From: a virus
Taxonomy: Duplodnaviria; Heunggongvirae; Uroviricota; Caudoviricetes
Virus record (IMG/VR): IMGVR_UViG_2529292720_000011
Length of the DNA: 28,769 nucleotides
Direction: 5' to 3' (one strand)
In this document: positions 1-12,755 of the stretch, one piece after another
Numbering within the stretch: position 1 is the first letter of the stretch
Layout: each line of letters starts with the position of its first letter
Position numbers and translations under genes: made by a program
Notes under the pieces: model-generated
What the model was told of the DNA's origin: nothing
Database searches by the model: none
Seen by the model: the letters and a program-made list of their open reading frames with translations, nothing else

Positions 1-1002
1 TTACCCTCTATTGTCAAAAGGGTTCAATTCAACAGCAGCCTCTAAATGACCTGGAGCAAAATGCGCATAACGCATAGTCATTTTTATATCGCTATGCCCC
101 AGTATTTTTTGCAACACAAGAATATTTCCGCCCCGCATCATAAAATGACTGGCAAACGTGTGACGTAGCACATGAGTTAATTGCCCATCAGGAAGCTCGA
201 TCTTCGCTCTCTTAATTGCAGCGTCAAAAGCCTCATAACATGGTGAAAATAGCGCTCCTCGTTTTTTAGGAAGCATAGCCTGCAATTGAGGTGAAATCGG
301 TACAGTGCGGTTCTTCTTTCCTTTAGTTTTAACAAATGTGATTCGACCGGGCAGTACTTGAGATTGCTTTAATCCTTCTGCTTCACTCCACCGAGCACCA
401 GTCGCAAGCCCAATACGGACAACAACCCCCAAATCTTTATTCCGTGACTCATCACACGCAATCAGAAGGCGTTCAATCTCATCTACATACAGAAACGCCA
501 GTTCCTTTTCTTCCTCACGAAACTTGCGAATACCAGTCAGGGGGTTTTCACCAGACCACTCCCCAAGGCGCTTCAGTTCGGCAAAAACAGCATGTAGATA
601 TGACTGCTCGCGATTAACGGTTGCTTCACTAAGTTTTTTCTTCCCCTTGGGATTCCATTCTCCTGATAGCCTTCTTTCCCGATAAGTAGCAAACATATTT
701 TTGTCAAACTGCGAAGCAAATGGATCTCCCAGCCTGGAACAAATCGCCTCAAGTTTGACTTTGCGCTCTGCACCAGAGGACAAGGTTTTACCGTACATCT
801 CAAACCAACGAGCAATCAACTCAGAAAGACGAGGACCAGAACCATCTTGAAACTCGTCTCCAACTCTACTATTCATTAAACGGCGCTCATAAGAGAGCGC
901 CTCACTTTTTGTCGCAAACTGTTTACGAATGCGTTTTCCCGATGCCCCGTAGGGATAACATTCGCAAAGCCATTTACCTGATGGAATCTTACGAACCGAC
1001 AT
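1..1002 (-). CDS. int: Tyrosine recombinase / phage integrase (P2/186-type)
   Basis: 333-aa ORF; C-terminal catalytic region ...LRHTFASHFMMRGGNILVLQKILGHSDIKMTMRYAHF... has the R..HxxR..Y signature of tyrosine recombinases; N-terminus MSVRK.PSG.W resembles 186/P2-type integrases. Stop codon sits at window positions 1-3, so att lies outside the window. Confidence 0.9.
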   Translation of the reverse strand: MSVRKIPSGKWLCECYPYGASGKRIRKQFATKSEALSYERRLMNSRVGDEFQDGSGPRLSELIARWFEMYGKTLSSGAERKVKLEAICSRLGDPFASQFDKNMFATYRERRLSGEWNPKGKKKLSEATVNREQSYLHAVFAELKRLGEWSGENPLTGIRKFREEEKELAFLYVDEIERLLIACDESRNKDLGVVVRIGLATGARWSEAEGLKQSQVLPGRITFVKTKGKKNRTVPISPQLQAMLPKKRGALFSPCYEAFDAAIKRAKIELPDGQLTHVLRHTFASHFMMRGGNILVLQKILGHSDIKMTMRYAHFAPGHLEAAVELNPFDNRG

Positions 1003-1383: not shown

Positions 1384-2034
1384 TTACAAATTAAAAAACG
1401 CTCTAGAAATGACACCGCCTACCAACCCCCCTACGCAGATAAAGAATATTATTTCTTTTGGATAAAGTCGGATTAATTCTGAAGCACGAAGTCGGACTTC
1501 TGGTAAGGTCGAACTCTCTGTGTGGCTTGATGCCGATTGTTGCTCTAACCACGACAATGCAGACTGTAACTGAGAACGAGTAAGATCGTTTAAACGTCCT
1601 GTACCGAAATTGATATGGCAATACCGCAGAAGTTTTTGTCGAAGTCCACAGTCTTCACTGTTACGTAGTAATAAACTTACAAGAGCCTTACAGGCATCAT
1701 GATCTTTACATCGCTCAAGCATTGCATGCAGAAAACTCTCCGCTGTTTTATATTGATTTACTGTCATATCATCAATACCAGCTACACCAATCTCCGCATG
1801 TACTTTTTGCCAAATAATAAACGCTTCAGTATTGCTAGCTTCTGCAATAGCAGCAACCAAGCTATTTAGCTCCTTACGCTGAGCCTTAAGCAAAGGGCGA
1901 TCGTCATCATCATTATTCGAAGGGATTGCGATATTGACGGTATGAGAACCATCATATCGCTCTATCTGAATATTCTTTTCGTGAAAATCACGCCCAGCAA
2001 CGCGATTGTTTGAACCGTTTGAGTTGACGGCCAT
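1384..2034 (-). CDS. Hypothetical protein with C-terminal hydrophobic anchor (216 aa)
   Basis: ORF between repressor and int; C-terminus EIIFFICVGGLVGGVISRAFFNL is a likely transmembrane helix; N-terminus shares the motif NNR(V/I)AGRD(F/Y)(H/N)E with the C-terminus of the upstream repressor. Confidence 0.5.
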   Translation of the reverse strand: MAVNSNGSNNRVAGRDFHEKNIQIERYDGSHTVNIAIPSNNDDDDRPLLKAQRKELNSLVAAIAEASNTEAFIIWQKVHAEIGVAGIDDMTVNQYKTAESFLHAMLERCKDHDACKALVSLLLRNSEDCGLRQKLLRYCHINFGTGRLNDLTRSQLQSALSWLEQQSASSHTESSTLPEVRLRASELIRLYPKEIIFFICVGGLVGGVISRAFFNL

Positions 2035-5815: not shown

Positions 5816-8623
5816 ATGACGGCAGAGTACATCAGGGACTGGCAGCAACCGCGCCACGCAGTGGGGCGTGAAGGAACGGGGATCCCCGCTCCTGAATCCG
5901 CGCTTTCCTCCTGGCTGGATGCCTACCGGGCAGAGAACGAGCGCTGCCAGGAAATGGCTGATGCGGCGTTCTCCGCCACGCCGCTGGGCAACCTGATTAA
6001 TAAAAGCCTGGACGCACAGGAAAAACAGGACAAAACCATCACACTGGCAGGAGACGCCAGAAAGCAGGTACGCGGCGCGGTGGATGAAGCCATGGCCTCG
6101 CTGCGCCTGCTGCCATCCTATCTGCGCGATCCGCTTATTCGCCACCTCTCCTTCCTGCGCAAAAAACAGGAATCTGACCGCCAGAAAGGTAAAAAGAACC
6201 AGCAGGCTGAACGCTACGCGCGCGGGACCCTGCGCAAAATATTCGAACGTCTGGATCGCACTGACGGGCGCTGGCTGACACCGGGTTATCGCTCCCTTGC
6301 CGGGCGCGAACGCCTGGACGATTTGCTTTCCCTGCCGCAGCTCAACAAGCACCAGATACAGACGCTGGCCACCATGACGGCGGCGATGTTCAGCAGCACC
6401 TTCGAAACACTCTGCGATGGCTTTGGTGCCAGAGATGGCGAGCTGACCATGGATGTAATGTTGAAGGCTTACCGGATGCTGGCCCGTATCGCATTACGCC
6501 TGCACATCATGCCGCCACATTACGAAGCCCTGAACAAGAGCGATCCGGATACGGAACTGTTACCGGGCGCAATCCTTCGCCTGACCTGTGCGGAATGGTG
6601 GAAACGCAAATTGTGGCTGTTACGTTGCGAGTGGAGAGAAGAACAACTCCGCGCCGCCTGTCTGGTTTCCAGAAAAACATCACCCTATCTGAGCCAGGAC
6701 GCGTTAAGCGAGTTTCGCGCACAGCGCGAGAAAACACGCGATTTCCTGAAAAGTTTCATGCTGGAAAACGAAGACGGGTTCACGATTGATCTCGAGACAG
6801 TGTATTACGCGGGAGTAAGTAACCCGGTTCACCGTAAGGCAGAAATGATGGCCACCATGAAGGGGCTGGAACTTCTGGCCGAAGCCCGTGGCGACAAAGC
6901 GGTGTTTCTGACTGTCACCTGCCCGTCAAAATACCACGCCACAACAGAGAACGGTCATCCGAATCCCAAATGGAACGGGGCCACCATGCGCGACTCCAGC
7001 GATTACCTGGTTAACACGTTTTTTGCGGCGGTCCGCAAGAAACTGAACCGCGACGGCCTGCGCTGGTATGGCATCCGCACGGTGGAGCCTCACCATGACG
7101 GCACCGTGCACTGGCATATGATGGTCTTTGCACATCCGGACGAGATTGAAACCATCGTGTCCCACGTCTGCGATATTGCCATTCAGGAAGACCGCCACGA
7201 GCTGGGCGATGACATAACTCCGCGTTTTAAGGCGGAGTACGTAGACGGCTCAAAAGGCACACCAACCAGCTACATCGCCACCTACATCGGAAAGAACCTG
7301 GACAGCCGCGCCGTGGATGGCATCGACCAGAAAACGGGCAAGCCACGCGTTGACCACGAAACCGGAAAATCAATGGCCGAGAGCGTGGAACGCGCCATCG
7401 GCTGGGCGCGCCTTCACCGGGTCCGCCAGTTCCAGTTCTTTGGCATCCCCTCCCGTCAGGTGTGGCGTGAACTCCGCCGCCTTGCCAGCCAGATGGCACG
7501 CAACCCGGAAGGCCCGCAACGGCTGAAGGATGACGCAATGGATGCGGTACTCGCTGCCGCTGATGCAGGATGTTTTGCCACCTACATAGAGAAACAGGGC
7601 GGCGTACTTGTTCCACGCAAAGACTACCTGATTCGCACCGCCTACGACCTCGCCGATGAGCTGAACGATTACGGCGAACAGAGCGTACAGATTTACGGGA
7701 TCTGGTCACCACTCATCGGGGAATCCTCCCGTGTGTGCACGCATCCGGATAACTGGAAGCTGGTAAGACGCAAACCGGAAGCGGAAGACAGCGCCCGCGA
7801 AAATGGTTTTGACCTTCAGGGCGGCCCTGCCGCCCCTTGGACTCGTGGCAATAACTGTCCCCGTGTACAGGAAACAGGCAACAGCGGGACAGAACAGTCG
7901 AAAGAACGGCCAGCACCGTGGCCGCAGCTTCCTGACGGCGTTGAAGTGAACGAATGGATGCGCTCACTGAAACGGCACGAACGCCGGGCGCTGATGCGTT
8001 CGCTTCGTGACAAACAGGTAAAAAACAGCAGTGATGAAATGCAGAGCTGGACACAGAGCCGCAAACAGCAGCGGCCTTTGCCTGATAACCACGAATTACT
8101 CGCTAAAGAATGGCGGGAGTCTGCCGAATCTCTCGGCCTGCATATCGGTGAACAGCAGATGCAGCACCTGCTACGGGGCGGCAGCCTGTACGTTGACGGC
8201 AGCATCATTGCACCGCAGGGATATGAAATTGTACGCAAACCGGATACCCGCCCGGACAGCCGAATCACGCAGCTCTGGCAGCACCTGAGCCGTAATCACG
8301 GCGTAAGCAGCACGGAGATCCGCCATAACCCGGTCGCCAGCTATCTGGCACAGCTGGGGGCATCAGACCCCGAAGCCGCCGCACGCCTGGCATCCGCACT
8401 TCAGCAGGATCAGAACACCATGAAAACACCCGTTACCGTGCTTTCTGACATGCTGCGCGCCATCCGCGACGCAGAGCACGCACAGAGAATCAGTGAAACC
8501 ACTGAACGCGCCAGCCGCAAAGCAGACCTGCTGCAGGGTGGCCTGACCAGTGGAAACAAAAAACAGACAGAAACGGGATCCACAAATCCCGTAAATGAGC
8601 AAAAAACGCGCCGCGATATATGA
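5816..8623 (+). CDS. A: Replication initiation endonuclease gpA (rolling-circle initiator, P2 A family), 935 aa
   Basis: Motifs VTCPSKYHA and TVEPHHDGTVHWHMMVF (HUH-type histidine motif) plus tyrosine-rich catalytic region; position after the early operon as in P2/186. Confidence 0.85.
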   Translation: MTAEYIRDWQQPRHAVGREGTGIPAPESALSSWLDAYRAENERCQEMADAAFSATPLGNLINKSLDAQEKQDKTITLAGDARKQVRGAVDEAMASLRLLPSYLRDPLIRHLSFLRKKQESDRQKGKKNQQAERYARGTLRKIFERLDRTDGRWLTPGYRSLAGRERLDDLLSLPQLNKHQIQTLATMTAAMFSSTFETLCDGFGARDGELTMDVMLKAYRMLARIALRLHIMPPHYEALNKSDPDTELLPGAILRLTCAEWWKRKLWLLRCEWREEQLRAACLVSRKTSPYLSQDALSEFRAQREKTRDFLKSFMLENEDGFTIDLETVYYAGVSNPVHRKAEMMATMKGLELLAEARGDKAVFLTVTCPSKYHATTENGHPNPKWNGATMRDSSDYLVNTFFAAVRKKLNRDGLRWYGIRTVEPHHDGTVHWHMMVFAHPDEIETIVSHVCDIAIQEDRHELGDDITPRFKAEYVDGSKGTPTSYIATYIGKNLDSRAVDGIDQKTGKPRVDHETGKSMAESVERAIGWARLHRVRQFQFFGIPSRQVWRELRRLASQMARNPEGPQRLKDDAMDAVLAAADAGCFATYIEKQGGVLVPRKDYLIRTAYDLADELNDYGEQSVQIYGIWSPLIGESSRVCTHPDNWKLVRRKPEAEDSARENGFDLQGGPAAPWTRGNNCPRVQETGNSGTEQSKERPAPWPQLPDGVEVNEWMRSLKRHERRALMRSLRDKQVKNSSDEMQSWTQSRKQQRPLPDNHELLAKEWRESAESLGLHIGEQQMQHLLRGGSLYVDGSIIAPQGYEIVRKPDTRPDSRITQLWQHLSRNHGVSSTEIRHNPVASYLAQLGASDPEAAARLASALQQDQNTMKTPVTVLSDMLRAIRDAEHAQRISETTERASRKADLLQGGLTSGNKKQTETGSTNPVNEQKTRRDI

Positions 8624-8699
8624 AGCGCGCACAAAACAGGCGAAAGCGGGATTTAAAAATCCCGTAAACGGTTAATTAACCAACATAAGGAAAATCGAC

Positions 8700-9659
8700 A
8701 TGAAAATTTGTATCGACGACGGCTCCACCAACATCAAGCTGGCATGGACTGAGAACGGCGAACGCCGCAACGCCATCAGCCCGAACAGCTTCAAGTCGGA
8801 ATGGTCTGCGCCGTTCGGTGGCACGCATCCCGCGAACTACATGCTTGATGGCGTGCGCTATGGCTTTGATCCGGTCAGCGATCGTTTTGTCCAGACGACT
8901 GACACGCAATACCAGTACAGCGATGTGAATGTAATCGCCATTCATCACGCGCTGGTCAAATCAGGCATCACGCCACAGGAGGTGGATGTGGTTGTCACCC
9001 TGCCACTGAGCGAGTATTTCGACACAAACGCACAGCCGGACATGGCCAACATCAACCGCAAAAAAGCGAACGTCATGCGCCCGGTGGAGTACCAGAACGG
9101 CGAAGCATTCACTATCCGTAACGTACGGGTTATGCCTGAATCCATTCCGGCTGGCTTTAAGGCACTGGCTGACATGAGTCCGTTTGAATCCCTGCTGATT
9201 GTGGATTTGGGCGGAACCACGCTGGATGTGGCAAAGGTTCAGGGGCAGCTGGCAGGTATCAGCCAGGTGTTTTGCGATCCAAACGTAGGCGTTTCCCTGA
9301 TGGCTGATGCCGTGCTGTCGGTGATGGCCACTAACGGTATGCGTACCAGTCACCACATCGCCAATACCATTATTGAGCACCGTCACGATGAAGCCTGGCT
9401 GCGCCAGCACATTCACAATGACGCGCATTACAACAGCCTGATGGCGGTTATTCGTGAAAAGGAGGAGACACTGAAACAACGAGTGATCCGCGCGCTGGCG
9501 GGTTTTTCCGGTTACGGGCGGGTGATGGTTGTCGGTGGAGGGGCGGAGATTGTGGCACCCGCTATCCGCGAAGCCTGCGGAGTTAATGCGACTTTCATCG
9601 CGGACGGGGTGCCACAGTTTGCTCTGGTTAATGGGCTGTACGCAATGAACAAGGAGTAA
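8700..9659 (+). CDS. parM: Actin-like segregation ATPase, ParM/StbA family
   Basis: N-terminus MKICIDDGSTNIKLAW...ISPNSFKSEW matches the R1 ParM N-terminus as recalled (MLVFIDDGSTNIKLQW...ISPNSFKREW); phosphate-2 LIVDLGGTTLDVA and adenosine VMVVGGGAEIV motifs present; 319 aa. Confidence 0.85.
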   Translation: MKICIDDGSTNIKLAWTENGERRNAISPNSFKSEWSAPFGGTHPANYMLDGVRYGFDPVSDRFVQTTDTQYQYSDVNVIAIHHALVKSGITPQEVDVVVTLPLSEYFDTNAQPDMANINRKKANVMRPVEYQNGEAFTIRNVRVMPESIPAGFKALADMSPFESLLIVDLGGTTLDVAKVQGQLAGISQVFCDPNVGVSLMADAVLSVMATNGMRTSHHIANTIIEHRHDEAWLRQHIHNDAHYNSLMAVIREKEETLKQRVIRALAGFSGYGRVMVVGGGAEIVAPAIREACGVNATFIADGVPQFALVNGLYAMNKE

Positions 9660-9663
9660 ACCA

Positions 9664-9975
9664 ATGACGACACCAACCAGAAGAATAAGTTTCTATCTGA
9701 AGCCAGCTGCCGTCAAGAACGAAGGAGAAGCATGCGCATGGCTGGACAGCCTTACACCAGAAGCCCGCAAAAGCGGCCAACGCGTGGCTTTTCTGGCCGG
9801 GCTGGCACTTCTGAAGACGAATCCGGCAGAGGCTTACCGACTGGCCGCATGGGCTGATGATGAGATGTTACCTGTGACACAAATCAGCTCAAAAAAGTTT
9901 GAAGCACAGTCTGCACCAGTGGCTAAGATAACCAGCCAGATGGCTGGGAATATCCGGGCGTTATTTCCTGGGTAA
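9664..9975 (+). CDS. parR: ParR-like RHH centromere-binding adaptor (103 aa)
   Basis: Immediately downstream of parM; RRISFYLKP...WLDSLTPEARKSGQRVAFLAGLALL...NIRALFPG parallels R1 ParR as recalled (RRTIAFKLNP...TLDSIPQGERSRL...ALTAGLALY...ILRSLFP). Confidence 0.6.
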   Translation: MTTPTRRISFYLKPAAVKNEGEACAWLDSLTPEARKSGQRVAFLAGLALLKTNPAEAYRLAAWADDEMLPVTQISSKKFEAQSAPVAKITSQMAGNIRALFPG

Positions 9976-10102
9976 AAGCATCTGCGCGAAAAATGCTCAC
10001 ATTTATAGAAACAGTATCATTCCATTTGGCGCACTTACTTCAATAATCGATCTGTTAAACAAATAGATTGTCTATTATCTATCGATTAAAACGATCAATT
10101 AT

Positions 10103-10131
10103 CTTGACAGTAATGTGCCTTTTTGTAAGAT
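10103..10131 (+). promoter_or_regulatory. Candidate sigma70 promoter
   Basis: TTGACA, 17-bp spacer, TAAGAT (TTGACAgtaatgtgcctttttgtAAGAT). Confidence 0.35.
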
Positions 10132-10236
10132 CGTTCGCATTGTGAGCGACAAGATAATTGCGCGGCATTGTCCATGCAAAACGCCCCAATAGCAGCAACT
10201 ATTGGGGCGTAGAACTCGGTCGGACTCACTTAACCT

Positions 10237-10323
10237 GATATGCGTGCCTTCCGAAGTAAATCAAAATGTGCGTCGTATATTTTATTGCTTACACGCACCT
10301 CTGTAAAGGCACGCATATTTTTC
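10237..10323 (+). other. Structured RNA leader / terminator-like element
   Basis: 13-bp arms atatgcgtgcctt (10238-10250) and aaggcacgcatat (10306-10318) enclose a nested hairpin gtgcgt/acgcac and are followed by a T-run; sits 17 nt upstream of the GTG at 10340. Confidence 0.4.
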
Positions 10324-10339
10324 CTATGAGGTAAATAAA

Positions 10340-10609
10340 GTGCGGGCTAAAACAGGTATTTGCAAGAACCCTCATCGTTATAACCCAACATTTCTGTCTC
10401 TCCCTGAATATCAAGGACAAGAAGGTCGGCACAAATGCGCTGCCTGTGCTTTTGAGCTAGGCATAAAAGATGCGCTTGAAGGACGCGCTATGGCTCAGAA
10501 TGATTTAGTTTTAGCTAACATTCCGTTTAGCCAGGCTGGAACTGTAAGGCACAGAGATGCTTATGAAGCATATGTTAGTGGTTGGCGATTAATACACAGC
10601 AACAATTGA
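10340..10609 (+). CDS. Hypothetical small Cys/His-containing protein (89 aa)
   Basis: GTG start with GAGG 8 nt upstream; C-x(3)-H ... H-K-C-A-A-C pattern may form a small zinc-binding knuckle; followed by a strong terminator. Confidence 0.5.
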   Translation: MRAKTGICKNPHRYNPTFLSLPEYQGQEGRHKCAACAFELGIKDALEGRAMAQNDLVLANIPFSQAGTVRHRDAYEAYVSGWRLIHSNN

Positions 10610-10616
10610 TATTTTT

Positions 10617-10642
10617 GAAGCGCCGATAAGGCGCTTTTTTTG
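10617..10642 (+). terminator. Rho-independent terminator
   Basis: gaagcgcc-gata-aggcgc stem-loop followed by TTTTTTT. Confidence 0.65.
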
Positions 10643-10643
10643 T

Positions 10644-10673
10644 TTGCACGATAGTGCACAAGTTTGCACAATT
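10644..10673. repeat. Three direct repeats of TTTGCAC/AGTGCAC with 10-bp periodicity (iteron-like)
   Basis: tttgcacgat / agtgcacaag / tttgcacaat read directly; a fourth GTGCAC at 10736-10741. Confidence 0.5.
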
Positions 10674-11169
10674 TTTTTGAACGACTTTTTGTACTTCCGG
10701 CCCGCGTGGCGGCTGGATCCGTCAAGGATCCGTACGTGCACAAAAAACGCGTTTTTTCTACGCGCAGGTGACGGGGGAACAGCCCGCGTTTCAGGGGGTA
10801 AATAGCATTCCCTGAACGATGTCGCAGAGACACAACAGAATGGCCATATTTCTCACGCTGAGCATGAAAAAGGCGTGAGGGCTTTTGATTTGATGGGGGG
10901 AAAGGTAAGGCCGTCAAAATCGCACTGAGGCAGCGAGAACATACAGTCAACGTGGTGGGATTGCGTAAGAGTCTGACCGTCGATGGTGGCGATAAACTGG
11001 AAGGCGTCGTGAAATTATCTGATTGATACAGGAGCTGGAGAGTCGGGGCATAAATTTTTTATGCCCCGGCGAAGCAGCAGACAAGCGAAGCGCGTCAGCG
11101 ATACGGCACCTTGCCGACCATACTTCGTAAGTGCAAAATACGAGCAAAGAAATCAATGGAGGCTGTCTT

Positions 11170-11694
11170 ATGGTCATTAATTACAAGCAGTTAAGAGAAA
11201 AACGGGAGCAGGTAAAGGAGAGCTTTCGCCGCAATGAAGATCTGACCCCGCTTGTACGCCTTGCCCAGGGCATTGTTGATGCTTATGAAATCTCGCTGGA
11301 GCTGCCATCACAGACCTGGACAGATAGCGACGGTAATCGCCAGCATTACGTTTCATGCGGACTGGAAGCAGCCGAAGGATTTCGCAGAATGCCTTTATCT
11401 CAGATCCCTGCCGCTACCCCCAAAGCAAGGGGCGGCAATGATGAGCGAAAACTGATTTTCAGCATTGAGACAGTGGTTGACGACACACCTGGCGAAGTCG
11501 CCTTCGTGCATACTCCTCTTTCGATCGCAATGTATAACGATGAAATACAGGTTCGCGTTAATAATAATATCGTGCCACTTAAAGAAGGTAATTCACCCTA
11601 CACCACCGTTTGTGAAGCCATTCAATATTACGTTTTCTCTGAAATTGATAATCTCAAGCCTGACGGCACCCAGAAAATGGTTCAGCTCTGGTAA
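11170..11694 (+). CDS. Hypothetical cargo protein (174 aa from ATG 11170)
   Basis: GGAGG 7 nt upstream of ATG 11170 (ORF track starts at 11131); convergent with portal gene; no motif recognised. Confidence 0.5.
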   Translation: MVINYKQLREKREQVKESFRRNEDLTPLVRLAQGIVDAYEISLELPSQTWTDSDGNRQHYVSCGLEAAEGFRRMPLSQIPAATPKARGGNDERKLIFSIETVVDDTPGEVAFVHTPLSIAMYNDEIQVRVNNNIVPLKEGNSPYTTVCEAIQYYVFSEIDNLKPDGTQKMVQLW

Positions 11695-11726
11695 AAAGGA
11701 CAGCCCCATCACGGGGCTGTTTTTTC
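11693..11726. terminator. Bidirectional intrinsic terminator between convergent genes
   Basis: AAAAA-ggacagcccc-atca-cggggctgt-TTTTTT; overlaps the last codons of the portal gene. Confidence 0.6.
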
Positions 11727-12755
11727 ATCAAGAAGAGCATAAGAGTTAAAACGGATCACCTCTTCGCCAAGCCAGTCATTGATGTGCTTCATGGCCTCCA
11801 TAACGGGCATCAGCTCGTTAATTGCGTAAACCCGCGCGGCCTTCTCCACATCACCAAACGCACTTTTTTCGCCCGGCATCGCCCCCATCAGTTGCGGCGG
11901 AACACGGTGCGCAGCCAGCACATCATCACGGGATGCCGCCTTAACATTCATGAACTCATCTTTTGCGGTGATCTGCTGGAACGGCAAAATTTGCACCCCC
12001 TCTTTGCCCCCGTTGGGCGCATGAATGAGCACGTTTTTAAACGCACCACCACCACGTGCCCCCTGTAGCGTTTCTTTCAGGGAGTCCATGCTTTCGCGGT
12101 TTACCTGCGCTGCACCGATGTAGATGATGCACCCGGCGTGGGATCCGTTGTCGTAGTACAGTTTTCTGAACATGTCCGCCGAATGAGAAAGGCTGGCCGA
12201 GAGTAATGCGCCAAGATATTCCGGCATGCCGTAGATTTCCTGGTTAATATCCGGATTCATCAGGTGGCACACTTTGCCAGGACGAAACTGAAACGCGTCC
12301 TTGCCATCCTGCACATACCACCATGATTCAAGATCGCTTCCGCGTCGCATGTATTTCGCCAGGGCGTGCCGTAATTTAAGCGGTTCGCCGAGCATATTGC
12401 TCCGAAGCTCAAGGAATGCGTTACCGAACACAAACCAGTCCAGCGCCAGCGCCGAGAAATCCTGCCGGGAAAGCAGCGGGTGCGGAATATAGCAGCCGAG
12501 CAATACATTGCGCTTAAAGTAAAGCGCAGACTGATGCCAGGACGTTTGCCGGGCAGCTCTTGCCAGACCGTACCAGTCCACCGGGGTTTCATACCACCGC
12601 CCGTTATCAGCACAGTACATATTGTCCAGCAGGTCATGCCCGGTCAGGCGATAAGGACCATCAAATGTGAATGCACTGAGCGATGATTCTTTCCTGAGCG
12701 CATCAGCGAGATCAATGCGTGAACTCATGCGCACTTTTTTATTTTTTCTGCTCAT
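11709..12755 (-). CDS. Q: Portal protein gpQ (P2 Q-like)
   Basis: 348 aa (P2 Q about 344 aa as recalled); adjacent to and co-oriented with the terminase large subunit. Confidence 0.8.
   Translation of the reverse strand: MSRKNKKVRMSSRIDLADALRKESSLSAFTFDGPYRLTGHDLLDNMYCADNGRWYETPVDWYGLARAARQTSWHQSALYFKRNVLLGCYIPHPLLSRQDFSALALDWFVFGNAFLELRSNMLGEPLKLRHALAKYMRRGSDLESWWYVQDGKDAFQFRPGKVCHLMNPDINQEIYGMPEYLGALLSASLSHSADMFRKLYYDNGSHAGCIIYIGAAQVNRESMDSLKETLQGARGGGAFKNVLIHAPNGGKEGVQILPFQQITAKDEFMNVKAASRDDVLAAHRVPPQLMGAMPGEKSAFGDVEKAARVYAINELMPVMEAMKHINDWLGEEVIRFNSYALLDEKTAP

Follow-up and report, generated by a model that had tools for sequence, protein, structure and literature searches.

In P2-like phages of Escherichia coli, the cos-proximal interval between replication gene A (gpA) and portal gene Q (gpQ) is a validated defence hotspot that holds non-defence genes too, and about a quarter of these phages carry "a putative plasmid partitioning system" (Rousset et al. 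2022, PMC9122126). "StbA" appears in locus tables S1 and S5 of that study only, being absent from its table of evaluated systems (S2), and the exact arrangement considered here (WP_000686506, WP_000211267, WP_001390707, and WP_000236489) is found in its Table S5. One of the P2-like phages, P88, was flagged as a possible phage-plasmid, perhaps with episomal and integrative states (Pfeifer et al. 2021); the P88 paper itself contains no cos or partition data. We analyzed the gpA–gpQ interval of the virus record IMGVR_UViG_2529292720_000011, a stretch of 28,769 nucleotides referred to below as the window. A preliminary description, made from the sequence alone, had treated positions 8624–11708 as a single AT-rich cargo island, situated where P2 carries tin and old and holding parM-like and parR-like genes, an 89-amino-acid (aa) Cys/His protein (orf89), and a 174-aa protein (orf174). 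The position agrees with the hotspot as defined by Rousset et al., and the locus is real but largely catalogued; what is new is its finer anatomy, a candidate parC site, and a link of the orf89 family to restriction-modification. We regard it as probable that the interval combines a fixed parMR partition cassette, the packaging site cos, and two slots for morons, with orf89 serving as a modulator of restriction or defence.

Anatomy of the gpA–gpQ interval

The window is an integrated P88-like (Xuanwuvirus, Peduoviridae) P2-family prophage of E. coli. The presence of an integrase gene (1–1002, minus strand) and a helix-turn-helix (HTH) repressor-like gene, followed by an early operon running up to the 935-aa gpA and by Q, P, and P2-type head and tail genes, identified it as an integrative P2-family prophage and positions 8624–11708 as its gpA–gpQ interval. 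The region was 93–97% identical to P88-like phages of the genus Xuanwuvirus, and 99.9% identical to prophages in the chromosomes of enterotoxigenic E. coli-type strains such as H10407. Sub-segments of the interval were each searched against 5426 complete E. coli genomes, revealing matches to the parMR segment (8624–9975) in 1303 genomes, to 9976–10620 in 166, to 10621–11102 in 1142, and to 11103–11708 in 397. Pairwise comparison with seven P88-like loci showed homology up to about 9968 and then again from about 10618–10645; this second run reached 11098, and phages lacking orf174 regained homology only at 11728–11734. Given these counts and breaks, the interval consists of four units: a conserved parMR, a variable slot 1 (9976–10640, plus strand), a conserved non-coding block (10641–11098), and a variable slot 2 (11099–11733, plus strand), which includes the last codons of Q and is absent from P88, phiSM, and P88_4B11. 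The supposed single island is therefore replaced by two conserved blocks and two variable slots. Comparison of the locus in other P2-like phages showed that its content varies between close relatives at slots 1 and 2, to which the idea of variable cargo can be restricted, and that parMR, invariant within the lineage, is the only part of the gene set that behaves as a conserved module.

The G+C content (GC) was 55.2% for parM, 52.6% for parR, 41.4% for slot 1 (9976–10640), 51.1% for 10641–11098, and 47.4% for 11099–11708, compared with a window mean of 51.8%; the claim of an AT-rich island thus holds clearly for slot 1 and mildly for slot 2, and fails for parM, parR, and the non-coding block. 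Non-coding DNA within 8624–11708 summed to 1018 bp, as the earlier estimate of about 1 kb implied. Hairpins were indeed enriched (14 terminator-like sites versus 3.9 ± 1.9 in shuffles). Promoters were not dense as had been stated, with 3 sigma-70-like sites versus 3.6 expected.

The contents of the slots differ among relatives. P88 has two different small open reading frames (ORFs) in slot 1 and an empty slot 2, and further relatives carry either DUF4760 together with a protein of 280 aa, or one protein of 196 aa, or a membrane protein of 172 aa. PADLOC searches with a sample of slot-1 cargos from other members of the P88-like group gave no match, apart from one weak Csx27-like match. Exchange of the cassettes would proceed by recombination in the conserved flanks, namely the 3′ end of parR, the non-coding block, and the 3′ end of Q. 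The interval has also been hit repeatedly by insertion sequences: IS1 splits orf174 in H10407 (locus L001, 6990–7687, at about window position 11557) and in SEC470, IS1X4 lies in slot 1 of strain CH4793, and in a prophage remnant of an O157:H7 strain (locus L113, 4387–5390) a piece of IS3 comes after parR.

The swappable cargo is thus two single-gene slots flanking the putative cos block. With respect to the Rousset hotspot and the P2 tin/old locus, the interval occupies the same place, between genes A and Q and beside the putative cos, and has the variable content of the gpA–gpQ hotspot. It differs in holding neither tin nor old nor any other recognised defence system, consistent with the preliminary remark that none of its genes resembles tin or old (no PADLOC v2 model was matched by any of the four proteins at E ≤ 0.1), and in that P88-like phages have the hotspot divided in two by the putative cos, with a slot on each side of it and the fixed parMR ahead of both. 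Each slot resembles the morons of lambdoid phages in having one ORF with a promoter-like site and a terminator (consensus matches only), in the deviant GC of slot 1, and in presence or absence that varies between near-identical phages; a departure from this pattern is that the boundary of slot 2 falls within the 3′ end of Q.

The parMR cassette and its candidate cis sites

The proteins of the first unit had been named correctly from the sequence. The gene parM (8700–9659, plus strand) encodes an actin-like segregation ATPase of 319 aa, with matches to PF06406 (3e-82), PF21523 (2e-68), and the structures of R1 ParM in the PDB (8.5e-93); after a gap of 4 bp it is followed by parR (9664–9975, plus strand), encoding an adaptor/centromere-binding protein of 103 aa (PF10784, 1e-23; phrog_2515). 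With predicted StbA_N and ParM C-terminal domains in one protein and ParR encoded directly downstream, the cassette has the protein composition of a type II (ParMRC) partition system. The parC of R1 is made up of ten 11-bp iterons. Compared with R1 parMRC, the phage cassette shares an actin-like ParM ATPase followed by a PF10784 ParR, as well as candidate cis sites that lie upstream of parM and overlap a putative promoter; it differs in that ParM is 46–52% identical to plasmid ParMs, forming a separate clade, in that two palindromes of 18–20 bp take the place of the ten iterons, and in being located in an integrative prophage, almost always chromosomal. A sequence search of solved structures gave no match for ParR.

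ParMR was present in every Xuanwuvirus record found; the records with ParM in the phage collection were near-identical members of this genus, and the only other one was the P1-like phage D6. Type II partition is defined for extrachromosomal replicons, whereas 1449 of the 1451 places where parMR was found in the complete E. coli genomes were chromosomal. The cassette was intact, at a coverage of at least 80%, in 1278 genomes, and the ratio of nonsynonymous to synonymous substitutions (dN/dS) was 0.05–0.09 for parM and 0.24–0.28 for parR, at synonymous distances (dS) of 0.11–0.42. ParMR is therefore conserved in the lineage, under strong purifying selection, and of normal GC. Identity to ParM above 95% was found in only six plasmid records. 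In these records, which include NZ_CP110658.1 (Salmonella, 272 kb), ParM was 95–99% identical to the phage protein, which suggests P88-like elements inserted in plasmids or existing as plasmids.

Two palindromes precede parM. The first, ACGGGAT-N6-ATCCCGT (8573–8592), falls within the 3′ end of gene A, whose final codons it overlaps, and is a candidate parC-like ParR site; the second, GCGGGAT-N6-ATCCCGT (8646–8665), falls in the 76 bp that separate A from parM, and is a candidate ParR operator or centromere. Each belongs to a direct repeat of 39 nt and lies 73 bp from the other, and the two are the only exact occurrences of CGGGAT-N6-ATCCCG in the window. Across P88-like phages the arms are constant and the central bases vary. 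No classical iteron array was visible. Palindrome 2 overlaps a weak −35-like TTTAAA read by eye, and the consensus promoter scan reported no promoter at this palindrome.

Two alleles of ParR were found; only 56% of their residues are identical, but the N-terminal 18 aa are invariant and the C-terminal tail is conserved. If ParR is a ribbon-helix-helix protein, these 18 residues would carry the DNA-reading strand, and their invariance fits the unchanged arms of the palindromes, which falls short of proving binding. The alleles were compared between window positions 9664–9975 and two further loci (L029, 2541–2855; L113, 4041–4355), and may mark incompatibility or specificity groups. There is a recombination break near window position 9718, many genomes matching parMR only to query position 1095, and the dS of parR is about three times that of parM.

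Could parMR be a functionless relic, left by a plasmid ancestor or by recombination with a plasmid and passively carried? The almost exclusively chromosomal location, the possession of an integrase and a repressor, and the missing iteron array would all suit such an origin; the low dN/dS of both genes, the large number of genomes in which they are intact, and the conserved palindromes upstream of them make it highly improbable. We instead favor a cassette that works in partition. No plus-strand terminator was found between A and parM, so that parMR would be co-transcribed, and expressed together, with the early/replication operon. ParR would bind both palindromes upstream of parM, and ParM filaments would push apart circular phage genomes during an episomal phase, which could precede integration, follow excision, or occur in hosts that bar integration.

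Two small slots around a putative cos site

The conserved non-coding block (10641–11098) is most likely cos, the packaging region, judging by its resemblance to the DNA beside P2 cosL and by its position. Its core (10633–10788) is the sole part of the interval that could be aligned, at 72–78% identity, with P2-like phages outside the P88 group (from Trabulsiella and from a metagenome). Ahead of its other motifs the block has three copies of TGCAC(A/G)A at a spacing of 10 bp (10645–10671), followed by GCGTGGCGG (10704–10712), two copies of GGATCCGT (10715–10733), CGCGCAGGTGACGGGGG (10761–10777), and a hairpin (11044–11068) placed like the Q terminator of phages without slot 2. In a multiple alignment, CGCGCAGGTGACGGGGG aligned with P2 TGCGCGCTGACGGTGG, immediately to the right of cosL, and GCGTGGCGG is similar to the beginning of the P2 end GGCGAGGCGG and to that of the end of phage 186. 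In P2, cos is situated between old and Q, with about 160 bp separating it from the Q terminator, and the linear P88_4B11 record breaks at 10689/10690.

An ORF of 42 aa is annotated inside the block (window 10898–11026) in P88, P88_4B11, and H10407. Its start codon is lost in the window (GTG to GGG), which makes a real or required gene improbable here. Annotations of small ORFs such as this one in some records are what recommends the view that the block is a regulatory, late-promoter, or small-gene region and not cos. That view is very unlikely to be right, since the 42-aa ORF has no start codon in the window, the position immediately upstream of the Q terminator agrees with that of P2 cos, the sequence is similar to the flank of P2 cos and conserved in distant P2-like phages, and a linear phage record breaks inside the block.

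Slot 1, the positional equivalent of P2 tin/old, would here hold an AT-rich moron cassette made up of a leader, orf89, and a terminator. A promoter-like TTGACA-16-TAAGAT (10104–10131, plus strand; a consensus match only) has the arms of a perfect inverted repeat of 11 nt on either side (10096–10106 and 10150–10160), and the plus-strand leader of orf89 (about 200 nt) has a strong predicted fold (z −4.1). The 89-aa ORF itself (10340–10609, plus strand), preceded by a GAGG ribosome-binding site, encodes a small basic Cys/His protein with an isoelectric point (pI) of 8.9 and proved to be a real gene, matching phrog_3941 (2e-48). An intrinsic-terminator-like hairpin (10617–10645, plus strand), with an 8-bp stem including five G-C pairs and with its hairpin at 10617–10637 followed by a T-run, closes the slot. 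On the opposite strand we hypothesize an antisense small RNA of about 95 nt (10175–10307, minus strand), with a promoter-like TTTACA-17-TAAAAT (10307–10279), a terminator hairpin (10210–10181) followed by a T-run, and a fold z of −3.2; a search of Rfam gave only a partial sar match on the terminator hairpin (E 0.52), under the gathering score of the family. Around the promoter-like site of orf89, a stretch of 81 bp contains three GATC sites (10049, 10093, and 10129), one of them overlapping the −10 hexamer. This is the densest cluster of GATC in the window, the maximum of three per 150 bp being reached at 115 of about 28,600 positions, and it suggests Dam-sensitive expression. A role for orf89 as a reader of GATC was considered and rejected, as the regions upstream of 77 homologues had 2.1 GATC per kb versus 3.4 per kb in the background, with no enrichment.

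Slot 2 holds orf174 (11170–11694, plus strand), a gene with its own ribosome-binding site, which was likewise found to be real (phrog_5091, 1e-66) and under purifying selection (dN/dS about 0.1). It encodes an acidic alpha/beta protein (pI 5.0), for which the predicted model, with a mean predicted local distance difference test score (pLDDT) of 78, has an antiparallel sheet packed by helices. The family comprises 19 clusters from E. coli, Salmonella, and Trabulsiella, and in the contexts examined the homologues elsewhere were also in the gpA–gpQ interval, with or without parMR. A search of NCBIfam gave no match, and family matches were limited to a PHROG of unknown function; our best guess, of low confidence and drawn from the fold class only, is that orf174 may be a protein-binding inhibitor or an immunity-like factor. 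The splitting of orf174 by IS1 in H10407 indicates that it is dispensable for maintenance of the prophage. A hairpin (11695–11725) is positioned as a bidirectional terminator between orf174 and the convergent Q. The C-terminus of Q depends on the cassette, the last five residues (window 11709–11733) switching from ...DEKTAP when orf174 is present to ...DTQPTS when it is not, which places the boundary of slot 2 inside an essential gene.

The orf89 family and restriction-modification

The orf89 protein belongs to a broad family without a name: a search of 1.8 billion representative proteins gave 173 relatives, and a profile search yielded 1410 clusters. The family shares the signature C-x3-HR ... 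Q ... GRHKCAGCAYE-G ... SQAG-x-x-RHK ... AY-x-x-GY, from which orf89 could consist of an internally duplicated hairpin-helix unit with a C/H/C/C set that possibly binds zinc. No model of Pfam, NCBIfam, or PADLOC matched orf89, and Pfam searches with 37 family sequences gave only sub-threshold matches to RMF and Fil motifs. Neither the sequence profile, searched against solved structures, nor the predicted fold, searched against the PDB, had a solved relative, and no HTH family was matched by orf89 or by 36 of its relatives.

Fusions of the orf89 domain were found to DndB/DpdB-like proteins (three), to NOV_C/PD-T4-1-like nucleases (two), to an HNH restriction-type nuclease, and to a WYL protein. 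Stand-alone homologues occur in two kinds of operon, one with a Dam-like methyltransferase and a 425-aa protein (PADLOC REase_II, 4e-148), and the other with DpnII, two methyltransferases, and an HTH C-protein. A sample of 80 loci from 80 species (Proteobacteria, Bacteroidota, Firmicutes, Actinobacteria, Campylobacterota, Spirochaetota, Chloroflexota, and Myxococcota) had a Dam-like methyltransferase within 6 kb of the orf89 homologue in 39 loci, a DpnII or REase_II protein in 28, and any methyltransferase in 45. In other loci the homologue is followed by a protein with DUF4062 or by a Pycsar-like cyclase pair, and some homologues in Enterobacteriaceae lie among invertase and transposase genes. 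The gpA–gpQ interval of a second P2-like lineage also contains a solo copy (53% identity), and restriction-associated homologues are 54% identical to the protein of the window.

Proteins of about 425 aa with DUF6996, DUF6997, and DUF7226 (locus L009, 3704–4981; homologues in L013, L016, L022, and L023) are the nuclease partners of Dam-like methyltransferases in such operons, in which DUF3644 (PADLOC candidate PDC-S19) is also frequent. Searches of the PDB and NCBIfam gave no relative of these proteins, and in the literature we found no report on the protein accessions or on DUF6996, DUF6997, and DUF7226.

These associations suggest that orf89 is a module that binds nucleic acids and is accessory to restriction and defence systems. 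Similar to the C proteins of type II restriction-modification, orf89 homologues are small, basic, co-oriented with and tightly linked to methyltransferase and nuclease genes, and placed at the 5′ or 3′ end of the operon. Unlike C proteins, they have a Cys/His motif and the duplicated hairpin-helix unit instead of an HTH, one architecture has an orf89 homologue alongside a separate HTH C-protein, and the domain is also fused to nucleases. Because the phage encodes a solo copy, we consider an effector less likely than a modulator, be it a regulator, a decoy, or an anti-restriction factor; in the reading we favor, the protein would modulate restriction or defence by regulating it or by acting as a decoy.

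A rival reading would make orf89 an anti-restriction or anti-defence factor, a solo version of a restriction-modification accessory protein that mis-regulates or blocks DpnII-family systems of a host just infected, or forces premature expression of nucleases from incoming elements that bring such systems with them. It draws on the tight linkage of the family to restriction-modification operons across many phyla, on restriction-associated members that are as near to the phage protein as the other phage copy is, on the location of orf89 next to a genome end, and on the solo copies in two P2-like lineages and in mobile-element contexts of Enterobacteriaceae. E. coli is Dam+, and enzymes of the DpnII type cut only unmethylated GATC, so that the DNA of phages grown in E. 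coli is already methylated at these sites; to our knowledge, no inhibitor activity is known in the orf89 family, the protein is basic and so not a DNA mimic, and 35 of the 80 sampled homologues are away from any methyltransferase. With these objections, we consider an anti-restriction factor a tentative proposal and on balance doubtful. Similarly speculative, in our estimate, is the broader proposal that orf89 represents an undescribed, widespread zinc-binding family, a component of DpnII/Dam-type restriction-modification and other defence nucleases, and that the solo copies of P2-like phages manipulate such systems.

Alternatively, orf89, orf174, or both may be lysogenic-conversion genes that are analogous in function to tin and old and that, expressed in the lysogen from promoters of their own, exclude other phages. 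Occupation of a validated defence hotspot, the moron anatomy of both genes, each with a promoter-like site and a terminator, the foreign GC of slot 1, and the fusion of the orf89 domain to defence nucleases and its presence in defence loci elsewhere are what such genes would lead one to expect. An anti-phage function of this kind is nevertheless unlikely, as PADLOC gave no match, both are small single proteins without a recognisable enzymatic or membrane-effector domain, and the bacterial homologue of orf89 is an accessory partner of a nuclease or methyltransferase and not the effector; moreover, no recognised defence system was among the alternative slot-1 cargos sampled in P88-like phages, and the hotspot of Rousset et al. 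includes non-defence genes as well.

The reading that we prefer, with a fixed parMR, cos, two moron slots, and orf89 as a modulator, has several points weighing against it. Because nearly all copies of parMR are integrated, its episomal role is conjecture. The candidate parC has only two palindromes, against the ten iterons of R1, and these might just as well be RNA hairpins or be bound by a different protein. Within the putative cos, the candidate cut sites suggested by motif resemblance (10704–10720) and by alignment (about 10742–10760) disagree by about 40 bp. Lastly, the binding of zinc and of nucleic acids by orf89 is deduced from sequence alone, 35 of the 80 sampled homologues have no methyltransferase nearby, and the family at large does not share the three GATC sites found at the orf89 promoter.

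The genes flanking the interval are those of a P2-like phage. On the left, gene A (5816–8623, plus strand) matched PF05840 (Phage_GPA, 7e-129) and phrog_91, and is a replication endonuclease in RefSeq; its product has 935 aa here, compared with 761 aa in P2, and the Phage_GPA domain stops at residue 498, beyond which there is a long C-terminal extension without known function. On the right, portal gene Q (11709–12755, minus strand) matched phrog_68 (5e-153) and PF04860. Farther away, an ORF of 216 aa (window 1384–2034, minus strand) between the integrase and the repressor-like gene, which had no match in Pfam, may be a further cargo position.

For about a quarter of the P2-like prophages of E. 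coli, these observations correct the annotation of the locus: parMR is core to the lineage, the putative cos divides the hotspot, and only two small slots are swappable. Retention of an actin-type partition system under strong selection by an integrative prophage is a puzzle, which the candidate cis sites make directly testable. If the proposed relation to restriction-modification is true, the orf89 family could act as a regulator, a reader of DNA or its modification, or a modulator of nucleases, and its use by phages would be anti-restriction or regulator-mediated exclusion of competitors. A functional orf89 family would then be a new accessory component of a classic class of restriction-modification systems, and possibly a new phage counter-measure.

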